Shown: positions 3,093 through 13,084 of the stretch, one piece after another
Numbering within the stretch: the first letter of the stretch is position 1
Layout of the letters: every line of letters begins with the position of its first letter
Virus record (IMG/VR): IMGVR_UViG_3300037483_000793
Coordinates: 96,001-160,000 of that record
Length of the DNA stretch: 64,000 nt
Reading direction: 5' to 3' (one strand)
DNA from: a virus
The notes under the pieces: model-generated
The model's database searches: none
What the model was told of the DNA's origin: nothing
Seen by the model: only the letters and a program-made list of their open reading frames with translations
Made by a program: the position numbers and the translations under genes

Positions 3093-3352
3093 CCCGACTG
3101 CAGCACCTGCTCTACGTTCTCGGCGCGTGGCGTTTCAAAGGCTATCGCCGTTGGATCGGTGGCCTGTGGCGCGAGCGGTTCATCGAGGCGACGCCGCACT
3201 CGTCTGAGCGCGACTGCTGGCGATGGGAACCCTGCATGCGATTCGATTCCGGCGGTCCCGCGCGCACGTACGCGTTCGAGTCATGGCCGATCAGGCCGAC
3301 CGAGCTGCCGATCGCCCGCGCGATCGCAACTCGTGATAGGAAAAGCGACTGA
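3089..3352 (+). CDS. hypothetical protein
   Basis: Coupled ORF. Confidence 0.55.
   Translation: MTRLQHLLYVLGAWRFKGYRRWIGGLWRERFIEATPHSSERDCWRWEPCMRFDSGGPARTYAFESWPIRPTELPIARAIATRDRKSD
3310..3325. promoter_or_regulatory. GATCGC-N4-GCGATC palindrome
   Basis: GATCGCCCGCGCGATC, 27 nt upstream of the LuxR gene start (inside 3' end of previous CDS). Confidence 0.7.
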
Positions 3353-3756
3353 TGTTGGACGACAAGACCAACCCACGCGGCTTCGACGACCCCAACGACA
3401 TGGCGTTCATGCACGGCGAACGGTTCTGTGGCGCTTGCCCTGAAGGCGAGGGCAGCTATCCGAACCACTGTTTGCACGGTAGCGGTGAGAACCTTGCATG
3501 CTGCTGGTGCGGCGACATGTTCGTCAGCGATACGCGACACGCGGTCCACGGCGACAACTTCCACCCGCTCACGCCGCGCGAAGTCGATGTCGTGAGGCTG
3601 ATGGCTGACGGACTCTCGAACAAGTTGATCGCGGATCAGCTCGGCATCAGTAATCACACGACGAAGTTCCACATCAGCAACATCGCGCGCAAGCTCAAGA
3701 AGACCACACGCGCGGGTATGGCGGCTGAAGCGGTTCGCCGAGGCATCTCGTCGTGA
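3352..3756 (+). CDS. LuxR-type HTH regulator with Cys/His-rich N-terminal domain
   Basis: LTPREVDVVRLMADGLSNKLIADQLGISNHTTKFHISNIARKL is a textbook LuxR/GerE HTH. Confidence 0.9.
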   Translation: MLDDKTNPRGFDDPNDMAFMHGERFCGACPEGEGSYPNHCLHGSGENLACCWCGDMFVSDTRHAVHGDNFHPLTPREVDVVRLMADGLSNKLIADQLGISNHTTKFHISNIARKLKKTTRAGMAAEAVRRGISS

Positions 3757-3953: not shown

Positions 3954-4696
3954 TCAAGCTCGCAATCGGCCTGCCAGCGTACGGCAGCAAACTCGACGTT
4001 GGTCATGCGGCAATGTGGCTCGGGGTTGGTGCAGCGCTCTGGCAAGCGCACGACAAGATCGAGTTGGCGTGGTTCAGCGAGTACCACGTCAACGGCATTG
4101 ATTTGTGCCGCAACACGATTGTCTACGACGCGATGAAAGCGGGTTGCGACTGGGTACTCATGGTCGATGCCGATACGTTCCACCGCACGACCGGCCAGGA
4201 CGGCGTTTGCGACGCGATCGGTGACGCAGGCGTCGACATCATTCAGATGGTCCGCGACGCGGACCGTGGCCAGTACGCGCACTGGGATGGCGAGAAGCAC
4301 GTGCTGAAGTCCATCGAGATTCCCGGGCCGGAGTATGCCAAGAGCGGTATCGCGTTGATCGGCGCGCCCGTGCGCGGTCGCGGCGTGGGCGACACAGGCG
4401 TCTGCGTGCAGCACAGCGACGGTTCGCAGATTCCGCTCGATCAGCTCGCGGGTAAACTCACTCACGTCTGGCGCATCGGCGGCGCGTGTATCGCCGTGAA
4501 CCTCAAGTGGTTCCGCGAGCATTGGCGCAAGGGACCGTGGTTCGAGATGGAGCACGACTACTCGGAGCGTCCCAAGAACGCGCGCGGTGAGGACTATTCG
4601 ATCTGTGACGGAATCTGGACGCGTCAGGGCGCTGTGATTTGTGATGGCCGCTTCGTGCCCTCGCACGTCGATCGGCGTCGTCTCGTCGGTGAATAG
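3950..4696 (+). CDS. GT-A/GT2-like glycosyltransferase
   Basis: IGLPAY start strand, RNxIV...A...DWVLMVDAD (DxD), C-terminal GEDYSIC. Confidence 0.75.
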   Translation: MIKLAIGLPAYGSKLDVGHAAMWLGVGAALWQAHDKIELAWFSEYHVNGIDLCRNTIVYDAMKAGCDWVLMVDADTFHRTTGQDGVCDAIGDAGVDIIQMVRDADRGQYAHWDGEKHVLKSIEIPGPEYAKSGIALIGAPVRGRGVGDTGVCVQHSDGSQIPLDQLAGKLTHVWRIGGACIAVNLKWFREHWRKGPWFEMEHDYSERPKNARGEDYSICDGIWTRQGAVICDGRFVPSHVDRRRLVGE

Positions 4697-4699
4697 CAC

Positions 4700-4715
4700 G
4701 ATCGCAAGAGCGATC
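4700..4715. promoter_or_regulatory. GATCGC-N4-GCGATC palindrome
   Basis: GATCGCAAGAGCGATC, intergenic, upstream of the recombinase operon promoter. Confidence 0.8.
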
Positions 4716-4729
4716 GCACTTGACAACTA

Positions 4730-4775
4730 GCTCTTGACTTGTCGCAAAGCAAGAGCCATGCTCAATGTCAAGAGC
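4730..4775 (+). promoter_or_regulatory. sigma70-type promoter (TTGACT-17-CATGCT) bracketed by inverted repeat GCTCTTGAC...GTCAAGAGC
   Basis: TTGACT 4734-4739, CATGCT 4757-4762; 9-bp perfect inverted repeat 4730-4738 / 4767-4775. Confidence 0.6.
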
Positions 4776-4833: not shown

Positions 4834-5190
4834 ATGTCGGATCCTAAACGCATCCAAAGCATCTTCCAACGGCACGTCGACGCCCTTGCGCGAGAGCTGG
4901 CGCAAGAGCTGACGCAGCCCTTGGCAGATCGCTTTGGAATCTCGCTCACCGAAGCTGTAGCGCCCGTCGTCACAGCGCCGTCCACGGTAGCCACCGCGGT
5001 ACCTCTCACGAACGCGTCGCTGATCTATGATCCGCGTGCGCGCAAGTGGGGGTGTCCGAAGTGTCGCGCGTTCTCGGACCTGCGTCGCAGGGCCGTGACT
5101 ACGCACATGCGGTTCTGCACGAAGACAGCGCTTGTGCCACCGGAGCCACCGCCGAAGGTGCGCCGCAAGCCGAAAAAGACCAAGAAATGA
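4834..5190 (+). CDS. hypothetical protein with C2HC-type zinc finger
   Basis: CPKC...HMRFC; basic C-terminus. Confidence 0.65.
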   Translation: MSDPKRIQSIFQRHVDALARELAQELTQPLADRFGISLTEAVAPVVTAPSTVATAVPLTNASLIYDPRARKWGCPKCRAFSDLRRRAVTTHMRFCTKTALVPPEPPPKVRRKPKKTKK

Positions 5191-6089
5191 CCTCGCTCGA
5201 AAACGCAGTCGATCGCAGCTCCGATCTCCGGCCCCGTACCAAGGAACTTTACCTACAGCATGTTCGCGCGTTCCTCGCCTTCGTCGGTGACACACCTACG
5301 CGTGATGTCACCGAAGAACTGGTGAAGTCATGGTGCGTGAACATGCGGCGCCGTCGGATCAGCCCGCAAAGCGTGAACGTTGCGCTCACGGCGCTTCGTT
5401 ACGCGGCTGTCAACGCCCACCACAAACATCTCGCGGATCACGCACTGAAGCTGCGGCTTCCGGTCGCCGAGAACACAGAAGAGATCGACGAGACTGCGCG
5501 TGCGCTGACGTGGGACGAAGGTCGGCAGCTCGTCGGTGCCTGCAACGGGGTGCGCGGACGCGATCTGCGCGACAATGCACTCATCACACTCGGGCTTCGC
5601 ACCGGCATGCTGCGGTTCTCGATGTGCCAGCTCAAGTTCGACGACATCGATCTTCCGCACCTGACGTTTGTCAAGAAAGGCGGCGTGAAGCACGCGATCC
5701 GCCTCGACACCGTCACGACGCATGCACTGCGCGCGTGGATGCGCTGGCTCAAGGAGCGGGACATCACCAAGGGATGTCTGTTCCGTTCGCTTGGACGGCA
5801 ACGTGTCGGTCCGAGCAGCAACGCCGCAATCGGTGATCAGCTGACGCCGGATGGGCTCTACCGGGCGCTACGCGAGCGGGCACGCAAAGCCGGTCTTGAC
5901 GATCTGCACCCGCACGTGTTCCGCAAGACGTTCCTTGCGTGGGCCAAGGAAGTCGGGGCGCAGCCCAGGCAGGTCGCAGCGGTCACAGGTCACAAATCCG
6001 ACGCGGTCGGTGACGACAGCAACGGCACCGGCATCACAGTTCCGGCCAACATGTTGTTCCCGGCGTGGACGGGAAAGAAGCTCGCCTGA
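5187..6089 (+). CDS. tyrosine recombinase/integrase-fold protein lacking the catalytic Tyr
   Basis: SAM-like N-domain (RTKELY...F), RDNALITLGLRTGMLR, KKGG, HPHVFRKT, TGH; no Tyr after TGH. Confidence 0.85.
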   Translation: MTSLENAVDRSSDLRPRTKELYLQHVRAFLAFVGDTPTRDVTEELVKSWCVNMRRRRISPQSVNVALTALRYAAVNAHHKHLADHALKLRLPVAENTEEIDETARALTWDEGRQLVGACNGVRGRDLRDNALITLGLRTGMLRFSMCQLKFDDIDLPHLTFVKKGGVKHAIRLDTVTTHALRAWMRWLKERDITKGCLFRSLGRQRVGPSSNAAIGDQLTPDGLYRALRERARKAGLDDLHPHVFRKTFLAWAKEVGAQPRQVAAVTGHKSDAVGDDSNGTGITVPANMLFPAWTGKKLA

Positions 6090-6259
6090 TGTGTTGCCCC
6101 GCCTGTGAGTATCGCGCATCTGACAGGTTCGACTACGCCGCGTGGTTACGTGCAGCGGATCGCGCCATCGACAAGGGTCTCAACGCGAACGCGGTGTGGC
6201 GACTGCACGAGAAGTTCACGCGACGCGGCGACGACTGCGAGATCGGTGGTGAAGGATGA
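6089..6259 (+). CDS. small hypothetical protein (CPAC motif)
   Basis: TGATG overlap with upstream stop. Confidence 0.55.
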   Translation: MCCPACEYRASDRFDYAAWLRAADRAIDKGLNANAVWRLHEKFTRRGDDCEIGGEG

Positions 6260-9247: not shown

Positions 9248-9885
9248 GCACAAAGATCTGGGAGGCGTACTGCATCAAGCCTGAACACGACGTCTGGACC
9301 GTCATGTGGGATTTGCGCCGTCGTGCCGAGCAGCGCGTGCGCAAGACACTGACGAAATTTTATCGTGCGCTGATCGAAGACGTGAAGCTACCCGCGAAAG
9401 AACGCGCGTGGCTAATCGGAACTGCAGGCGCTTCGATGGACGCATCGGACTTTACGTACCTGAGCGCGAGTCGGTTTGTTCAGAGCGAGTACAAGCAGAC
9501 CATCGGCCGGTCCGAGCGCAGCATCTGGGACTTGAACGTCAGCGTCGTCGTACGGCGCGCGAGCAGGAAGCGAACGCTGTTGATCCCGTACCCGGGCTCG
9601 GGACTACTCAACGGTTCGCTGGCGTTCATGCGGCGCCACAAGGCACTCGCTGACTACCACTACCAGAATCAGTCCGACCGACCGTCGCACGTGTCAGCCA
9701 GAACGTGGCGCGAACGCGCCCGCACGTGGGATCCGCTACTCGACGACGAGAACTGGCAGGACAAACTCGTGCTCGAAATCGTGTCGATCGACGGTTTCTT
9801 CCGCGTCGACCCGGTGTGGAATCTCATGCGCCGCGAGTTCAGGCGCACCGGCAAACTACCAGAACCACAAGCCGATCGCCCTTGA
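9244..9885 (+). CDS. hypothetical protein
   Basis: 213-aa ORF; LADYHYQNQSDRP...W...W..L motif. Confidence 0.7.
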   Translation: MSTKIWEAYCIKPEHDVWTVMWDLRRRAEQRVRKTLTKFYRALIEDVKLPAKERAWLIGTAGASMDASDFTYLSASRFVQSEYKQTIGRSERSIWDLNVSVVVRRASRKRTLLIPYPGSGLLNGSLAFMRRHKALADYHYQNQSDRPSHVSARTWRERARTWDPLLDDENWQDKLVLEIVSIDGFFRVDPVWNLMRREFRRTGKLPEPQADRP

Positions 9886-12943: not shown

Positions 12944-13084
12944 GCGCTGTTTTAGGGTCCTGAAATCGCGTACTTACGAGAAAGTGCGCTTACTCTTGCT
13001 TTGTTTGAATAGCTTGCTGCGTGGGTCGTCTGTAGGGCAGACTCGGTTGTTGCCAAGTCGCTCTCGACAAGGAGACGCCCCCCC

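Follow-up and report, generated by a model that had tools for sequence, protein, structure and literature searches.

Tyrosine-recombinase-fold proteins without catalytic tyrosine and arginine I form a conserved clade in large phages with high-GC genomes

The analysed window of 64,000 nucleotides covers the bases 96001-160000 of the IMG/VR virus record IMGVR_UViG_3300037483_000793, a phage genome (G000) of 195,792 bp with 62 % GC that is about 90 % complete. An intact open reading frame (ORF) at 5187-6089 on the plus strand encodes P0001, a protein of 300 amino acids with the fold of a tyrosine recombinase, in which the nucleophilic tyrosine and the first catalytic arginine (Arg-I) were both missing. 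Homologues with the same two losses formed a single clade, in the following named the dead clade, with 72 members defined as clusters at 90 % identity; they are carried by uncultured phages with high-GC genomes of about 100-230 kb. Judged from sequence and structural model, P0001 is a complete two-domain recombinase clamp that is no longer able to cut DNA. We consider it probable, with some reservation, that this protein acts as a non-catalytic DNA-binding regulator or architectural factor, probably together with a small zinc-finger protein encoded directly upstream. Coordinates refer to the window and its plus strand unless stated otherwise.

Fold and active site of P0001

A Pfam search of P0001 matched PF00589 with 2.3e-16, above the cut-off. 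The alignment covered the profile positions 3-159 of 172 and ended ahead of the tyrosine region; the N-terminal SAM-like domains PF13495 and PF02899 were matched as well. Integrase families of PHROG were also matched, and in the Protein Data Bank (PDB) the sequence resembled the archaeal XerC-like protein 4A8E and XerA 5HXY. An AlphaFold2 model, calculated with 149 homologues as input, reached a predicted local distance difference test score (pLDDT) of 93.9 and a predicted template modelling score (pTM) of 0.86. Both domains were visible in the model and, together with the Pfam and PHROG results, it delimited a core-binding (CB) domain at about residues 1-100 and a catalytic-fold (CAT) domain at about residues 105-300. 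In structural comparisons the model matched XerA with a Z score of 19.1 and DNA-bound Cre with 18.4 (root mean square deviation of 3.4 Å over 262 residues); IntI, XerH, Tn1549 Int and lambda Int were among the further matches. Homology and the two-domain CB plus CAT fold thus place the protein in the superfamily of tyrosine recombinases and phage integrases. As to the residues that define the enzymes, the hairpin lysine, the H-x-x-R motif and His/Trp-III were present in P0001 and only partly conserved across the clade, while the tyrosine expected about 9-10 residues past His-III was absent and so was Arg-I.

The initial annotation had described a recombinase fold that lacked the catalytic tyrosine and retained lysine, HxxR and the histidine of TGH, and this description was confirmed. 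The retained residues are K164, H243-x-x-R246 and H269, the latter within the His-III motif T267-G268-H269 (5985-5993), the final recognisable active-site element. Only three tyrosines occurred in P0001 (residues 22, 72 and 225), none of them C-terminal. From 5985 to the stop codon at 6087-6089, the tyrosine codons TAC and TAT (TAY) were missing in all frames of the plus strand. A simple frameshift had been discounted before on this ground, rightly, and a frameshift or read-through that regains the tyrosine was ruled out for the same reason. The downstream ORF of 56 amino acids (6089-6259) was considered as source of the residue and rejected: it contains a tyrosine, has no recombinase-like motif and is missing in several relatives. 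By our own estimate, a stretch of 105 nt with 62 % GC lacks TAY by chance with P about 0.15. The absence of these codons is therefore not improbable in itself, and the weight of the finding lies in its conservation.

With respect to Arg-I, the earlier assignment had to be corrected. The arginine of TGMLR had been taken as the catalytic residue, but this is R143, the neighbour of the catalytic position. A gap-free phmmer alignment to the XerC-like protein 4A8E placed Leu142 (codon 5610-5612; both codons together 5610-5615) in the Arg-I column, and 136 Tyr-bearing relatives gave the same register, with G140 and C147 as anchors and no gaps between them. The conserved R143 corresponds to the second arginine of the ancestral RTG[LM]-R-R motif. 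Read from a MAFFT alignment of 216 homologues, the column held leucine or glutamine in 72 of 72 dead-clade members and arginine in 138 Tyr-bearing relatives. With Leu142 in this column and the tyrosine absent, two of the six catalytic residues are missing, not one. Arg-I is a key transition-state residue that contacts the phosphate and the leaving group, and the tyrosine is indispensable: no substitution of it supports recombination by Cre (PMC2943603).

Three genomes were examined in full, namely G000, G001 (221 kb, 100 % complete by CheckV) and G002 (IMGVR_UViG_3300036768_000843; 95 kb, 59 % complete). Further loci, designated by L numbers, are mostly pieces of about 20 kb. Across the dead clade the pocket residues were relaxed, with H243 present in 46, R246 in 55 and H269 in 48 of 63 sequences; near-invariant were K164 (60/63) and R143 (63/63). 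The G002 copy was further decayed by H243R, R246A and H269Y, leaving it without five of the six catalytic residues.

The place of the tyrosine-nucleophile helix is occupied by an acidic, glycine-rich loop of residues 270-285 (5994-6041). In the AlphaFold2 model the residues 270-286 appeared as a loop of lower confidence (pLDDT about 69) without helix, followed by a short helix at 287-290. Clade members had loops of 7-18 amino acids with a mean net charge of -2, and 89 % of the loops were net negative. The adjoining motif PANMLFPAW (residues 286-294; 6042-6068) conforms to the consensus of the clade, P-A-N-[MF]-L-[LI]-P-x-[WF], with alanine in 70 of 70 and asparagine in 69 of 70 sequences. This PAN-type tail stands where the active relatives have an LP[SP]L tail.

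A residual enzymatic activity was considered on these grounds. P0001 could act as a nickase, nuclease or topoisomerase-like enzyme that uses water, another residue, e.g., the conserved pair of threonines before the PAN motif, or a nucleophile provided in trans. The retention of K164, H243, R246 and H269 in P0001 and most close orthologues would agree with such a role. It is opposed by the loss of Arg-I in every member, by the replacement of the nucleophile helix with an acidic loop that varies among the members, by the drift of the pocket residues in the deeper branches, most advanced in G002, and by the strict tyrosine requirement of Cre. We regard an enzymatic function as very improbable.

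Origin and conservation of the dead clade

Eighty-eight homologues of the dead recombinase were obtained from 5.8 billion proteins searched, and 2716 homologues at E <= 0.001 were found when HMMER was run over all 1.84 billion representatives. The species genomes of GTDB contained no dead-clade member in our scan; the single return was a Tyr-bearing relative in a metagenome-assembled genome (MAG) of the Gemmatimonadota. All homologues with an identity of at least about 45 % lacked the tyrosine and ended with T-G-H-K-S-D, followed by acidic residues and finally P-P-A-N-M-L-L-P-x-W. Sequences with 37-42 % identity had x-D-x-Y-T-T-D and an LPSL end.

Trees were calculated from 207 full-length sequences. 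Leucine or glutamine at Arg-I combined with the absence of the tyrosine was found in 72 of them; these formed one clade with no active sequence within, nested among Tyr-bearing integrases and with the active P0096 as sister. The Shimodaira-Hasegawa (SH) support for the dead clade was 82 in FastTree. In the IQ-TREE analysis without the C-terminal tail one state change sufficed, and the dead forms plus P0096 were grouped at 97 % in the SH-like approximate likelihood ratio test (SH-aLRT). For the closest pairs, the ratio of nonsynonymous to synonymous substitution rates (dN/dS) was 0.10-0.15 at dS 0.64-0.95. According to these trees, tyrosine and Arg-I were lost once, in the ancestor of the clade, which originated from integrases of the same phage group; the substitution ratios indicate a long-lived protein that is maintained under purifying selection. 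The single clade and the low dN/dS also bear out the proposal of a domesticated, catalytically dead recombinase made in the initial annotation. Close orthologues with a tyrosine had been named there in advance as the sign of a recent pseudogene or an assembly error. All close orthologues lacked the tyrosine. In view of the intact ORF, the lack of a tyrosine codon in any frame, and both substitutions and a novel, conserved tail being common to 72 clusters at this dN/dS, the chance of pseudogenisation or misassembly is practically negligible.

Some sequences deviated from this pattern. P0102, P0111, P0113 and P0116, all outside the dead clade, had no tyrosine and kept Arg-I; these may be independent losses of the tyrosine. 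A short form of 200 amino acids comprised the catalytic-fold domain only, with leucine at Arg-I and the PAN motif, and was found in L030 (9977-10579) and L032, on contigs of 231 and 202 kb.

The active relatives, i.e., the paralogue at 63275-64216 of G000, P0073, P0096, the integrase of CP070815, XerA (5HXY), the XerC-like protein 4A8E and XerD (1A0P), are true homologues with 30-44 % identity (E 1e-27 to 1e-63). Shared with the dead clade are the CB domain, the RTG-x-x-R region, the KGG-x-x-H hairpin, the blocks FRSL and LTPDGLY and a conserved C-terminal tail. The active proteins kept Arg-I, the x-D-x-Y-T-x tyrosine helix and the LP[SP]L tail, in contrast to the leucine or glutamine, the acidic loop and the PAN motif of the dead clade. 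The Tyr-bearing relative from the Gemmatimonadota MAG (CP070815; L053, 1294709-1315506; 42 % identity) was located in a prophage-like region, next to a phage-like protein of 1278 amino acids. This location gives a clue to the phylum of the host; it also suggests that the active relatives function as genuine integrases of prophages. A tRNA scan yielded no clue to an attP site.

Gene neighbourhood and promoter

The gene of the dead recombinase sits inside a conserved co-directional array, the order of which was kept in relatives at 45-72 % identity: a gene for a GerE/LuxR-type helix-turn-helix (HTH) protein (3352-3756), an ORF of 66 amino acids, a gene for a protein of 249-277 amino acids, a palindrome, the zinc-finger gene g4834, the dead recombinase and further small genes. 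Family searches of the neighbouring genes matched no transposase family.

The partner gene g4834 (4834-5190) encodes 118 amino acids with a long N-terminal helix, a C2HC beta-beta-alpha finger and a basic tail; in the AlphaFold2 model the helix spans the residues 4-34 and the finger the residues 64-94. Its C74, C77, H91 and C95 were invariant among the homologues. The stop codon of g4834 overlaps the start codon of the recombinase in the sequence ATGA at 5187-5190. The gene was located directly upstream of the dead recombinase in 13 of 16 related loci and was absent from G002 and L175. Homologues of g4834, in 41 clusters, were found only on contigs that match in size those with the dead recombinase, and nowhere else. 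A second zinc-finger motif, C-x2-C ... H-x3-H-C, was observed in an extra small ORF just 5' of the g4834 homologue (L028, about 9530-9640; L024, about 870-960).

A sigma70-like promoter of the operon of g4834 and the dead recombinase was predicted at 4731-4762. It consists of the extended -35 box CTCTTGACTTGTC (TTGACT at 4734-4739), a spacer of 17 nt and the -10-like CATGCT (4757-4762). The layout of box, spacer and TAnnnT occurred nine times in G000 and nine times in G001; the counts of the box itself were the same, compared with 0-1 for a reversed control. The -35 box preceded the operon in the window and in L021, L174, L175 and L176, distant relatives included. As a class, these promoters read TCTTGAC[TA][TA]G[TC] with a TAGnnT-like hexamer about 15-17 nt further on; sites are 1980, 4732 and 57835 in the window and six more in the genome. 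Phages with the dead recombinase had this class in their loci, and it was missing from the loci of phages whose homologues bear the tyrosine. Its extended box, TCTTGACWWGY, is a candidate operator and may be a target of the dead recombinase, the operon of which has a promoter of this class.

The inverted repeat CTCTTGACTTG-tcg-CAAAGCAAGAG (4731-4757) was examined as a core site of the recombinase type. Its right arm was not conserved in the relatives and its left arm is the -35 box of the promoter class, so this reading was dropped. A further motif, AT-rich and of 26 nt (about TATTCAAACAAAGCAAGAGTAAGTTG), was present in seven copies, one in the window at 12993 (minus strand) and six elsewhere in the genome (33904, 34080, 36678, 71040, 74750 and 81856). 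The copies are intergenic and about 35 nt from divergent start codons; an 11-nt core also occurs at 4745. This motif may represent promoters of a third type or, alternatively, an RNA element.

Proposed function

In our proposal, the dead recombinase would be expressed early from the host-type sigma70-like promoter, in most lineages jointly with the small basic C2HC zinc-finger protein. The core-binding and catalytic-fold domains would wrap specific sites of the phage DNA; of the basic residues, K164 and R143 are retained, and R246 in most members. The acidic loop would lie where the tyrosine helix was. The invariant PAN-LLP-W tail is a probable docking element and may derive from the C-terminal tail by which the subunits of active relatives contact each other. 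The bound protein would then regulate or organise the DNA without catalysis, in a manner comparable to the repression of SPbeta-like phages by MrpR/SroF. Besides the fold, the double loss and the single clade under purifying selection, we base this proposal on the synteny, the ATGA coupling and the exclusive co-occurrence with the zinc-finger gene, and on the precedents of dead recombinase folds as DNA binders, namely MrpR, SroF and TnsF.

MrpR (YopR) of SPbeta and SroF of phi3T are master repressors of SPbeta-like Bacillus phages (PDB 8A0A, 9RD5; PMC10516654; bioRxiv 10.1101/2025.11.27.690993). MrpR binds a repeated element, SPBRE, in about 10 SPbeta promoters (PMC10516654), and SroF forms a monomeric clamp on a box of 24-26 bp, from which it is released by a DNA-mimic antirepressor (bioRxiv 10.1101/2025.11.27.690993). 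Both resemble the dead clade in being encoded by large phages, in the full CB plus CAT fold and in being retained as functional proteins after the loss of catalytic residues, the tyrosine in SroF and the arginine and histidine residues in MrpR; a second, active recombinase in the same phage is a further parallel. The differences are also clear. Neither the single sequence nor a profile gave a sequence match to them in the PDB, and the structural Z scores of 12-14.5 at 10-12 % identity were below the 18-19 obtained for XerA and Cre. This low similarity and the position of the dead clade among active phage integrases in the tree speak for an independent origin. The hosts here are uncultured high-GC bacteria, not Bacillus, and the acidic loop, the PAN-LLP-W tail and the coupled zinc-finger gene are features of the dead clade. 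Repressor function, operator and antirepressor were demonstrated for MrpR/SroF, whereas the dead clade is known from its genes.

TnsF of the Tn6022-type Tn7-like transposons is a target selector with an inactivated recombinase domain (Faure et al. 2023, PMC10293859). As proposed here for the dead clade, it uses a domain inactivated from an active relative for the recognition of a DNA site. In TnsF, zinc fingers are fused to the dead domain, whereas here the zinc finger is encoded by a separate, translationally coupled gene. TnsF works with TnsABC to target comM; the genes described here are phage genes with none for transposition nearby, and the comparison is one of fold only. Crypton-derived eukaryotic genes retained a recombinase domain after the recombinase function was lost, at least in the cases described by Kojima and Jurka (2011, PMC3212892); according to that work, these genes belong to eukaryotic hosts, stem from transposons and are unrelated to phages.

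Several observations weigh against a DNA-binding regulator or architectural factor. No repeated motif of the size of a recombinase site (about 24-34 bp) that tracks the protein was found. The gene is part of a long co-directional array of small genes and does not have the classic divergent position of a repressor gene. The short forms of L030 and L032 have no core-binding domain, thus the full clamp is not always required. Finally, an intact recombinase was present in all three full genomes as well, which fits the role of a partner subunit equally.

Each of G000, G001 and G002 contained exactly two genes with PF00589, a dead one and one with the tyrosine. Between G000 and G002 the active genes are orthologous (57 % identity); in both, glutamine takes the place of His-III and the tail motif is I-Y-T-H-V-R ... 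LPSL. This orthologue is missing in G001, where the active gene codes for an unrelated XerC-like recombinase. Beside the intact paralogue of G000 lies an ORF of 309 amino acids (genome 62006-62935; L002 190-1119, minus strand), which in our view resembles the module by which homing endonucleases of phages bind DNA. As the main alternative, the dead protein might be a catalytically silent subunit of a heteromeric recombinase or a modulator of the intact recombinase of the phage. Bound to one half-site, it would position or license the intact enzyme, like XerC/XerD on dif, with the consequence that only one strand pair is exchanged, or integration and excision would be blocked or steered. The constant pairing of one active with one dead gene is in line with this, as are the LPSL-type tail of the family in the orthologous active genes of G000 and G002 and, in the dead clade, the retention of K164, of the complete fold and of a conserved tail at the C-terminus. 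However, the complete genome G001 has an unrelated XerC-like gene in place of the orthologue, a distance of 38 kb (G000) or 28 kb (G001) separates the two genes, which belong to different operons, the pair shares only 30 % identity, and a common candidate site was not found in the three whole genomes. We consider a silent or modulating subunit unlikely. Its obligate variant appears quite unlikely: a half-dead Xer-like heterotetramer, in which one strand pair would be exchanged or the dead subunits would determine the direction or the choice of site, and in which the zinc-finger protein would be an arm-binding accessory factor. If true, it would represent a new architecture for phage site-specific recombination.

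The palindromic element

The palindrome GATCGC-N4-GCGATC occurred 44 times in G000 and 36 times in G001, the reversed control not at all. Inside the window 21 copies span 3310-57784. For 30 of the 44 copies a called gene start lay at most 150 bp downstream. A TAnnnT hexamer usually followed after 4-10 nt, the distance to the start codon was mostly 20-40 nt, either strand was used and a -35 element was missing. This arrangement suggests a factor-dependent class of promoters or operators. A scan of viral contigs for the palindrome gave, among the matches listed, single chance matches only.

The initial annotation had proposed P0001 as a strong candidate binder of these palindromes and had pointed to the copy preceding its own operon. 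This copy does exist (4700-4715, no strand assigned), directly after the stop codon TAG (4694-4696) of the preceding gene, and its position is conserved in the closest relatives L016-L018; the sigma70-like promoter, however, is a separate element, the -35 box of which lies about 20 bp further downstream. A dead recombinase that binds the 44 copies throughout the genome would control a regulon including its own operon. The palindromes are real, most are near gene starts, the 4700 copy is conserved ahead of the operon, and a formal precedent exists in MrpR with its repeated element SPBRE. The occurrence of the protein does not follow that of the palindrome, which was nearly absent from several carriers: one copy in the 95 kb of G002 and none in about 20 kb each of L174, L030 and L032. 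The palindrome tracks the gene for the GerE/LuxR-type HTH protein instead. Both were present in G000, G001, L015, L017, L021, L028 and L175 and both were absent in G002 and L174, with L026 and L176 uninformative, a comparison that rests on few genomes. In L175 the palindrome was present without the zinc-finger partner of the recombinase. The HTH protein of the window (3352-3756, 134 amino acids) is encoded three genes upstream, matched PF00196 with 8.4e-18 and PHROG 3282, a 'sigma factor' family, with 8.8e-13, and its gene is preceded by the palindrome copy at 3310.

The geometry of the element points in the same direction. A dyad of 16-18 bp with a half-site spacing of 10 bp is the classic geometry of an HTH dimer, whereas core sites of recombinases have arms of 11-13 bp around a spacer of 6-8 bp. 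The palindrome has arms of 6-7 bp and a centre-to-centre distance of 10 bp; a recombinase dimer needs arms of >=11 bp and scissile sites 6-8 bp apart. Arms and spacing thus fit an HTH dimer and neither a recombinase core site nor the 24-26-bp box of SroF, which makes the dead recombinase an unlikely binder. We judge its control of a palindrome regulon improbable, and the earlier proposal is not upheld; the GerE/LuxR-type protein is the better candidate. The binding specificity of the dead recombinase could have changed along the clade.

The dyad CCGATC-N7-GATCGG of G002 was examined as a variant operator and discarded, as it proved to be the repeat of an array of clustered regularly interspaced short palindromic repeats (CRISPR). 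This array (93561-94993 of G002; locus L040) has at least 18 repeats of about 36 nt containing CCGATCAGCCGACGATCGG with a period of 60-74 nt, and it extends to the end of the 95-kb viral contig, on which the dead recombinase is encoded as well. The array may belong to the phage or mark a junction with a host. Another repeat region was observed in G000 outside the window: at 184260-185546 of the genome nine tandem units end in CAAGGGCACTAA, with runs of GGY-rich pentamers ahead.

Implications

The dead clade is a new group of pseudo-recombinases, probably of independent evolution; the concept as such already has precedent. With 72 clusters it provides an independent and widespread example of a phage integrase turned into a non-cutting protein, thus MrpR/SroF of the Bacillus phages are not a one-off, and large phage genomes seem to have recruited recombinase folds repeatedly for the binding of DNA. 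The sequences form a natural series from active integrases to proteins that have lost two and later five catalytic residues, useful for studies on the evolution of enzymes into regulators, and the losses were accompanied by gains, an invariant motif at the C-terminus and a zinc-finger protein as dedicated partner. In metagenomes, the dead genes are labelled as 'integrase', and on this label alone the phages carrying them would be wrongly called temperate.

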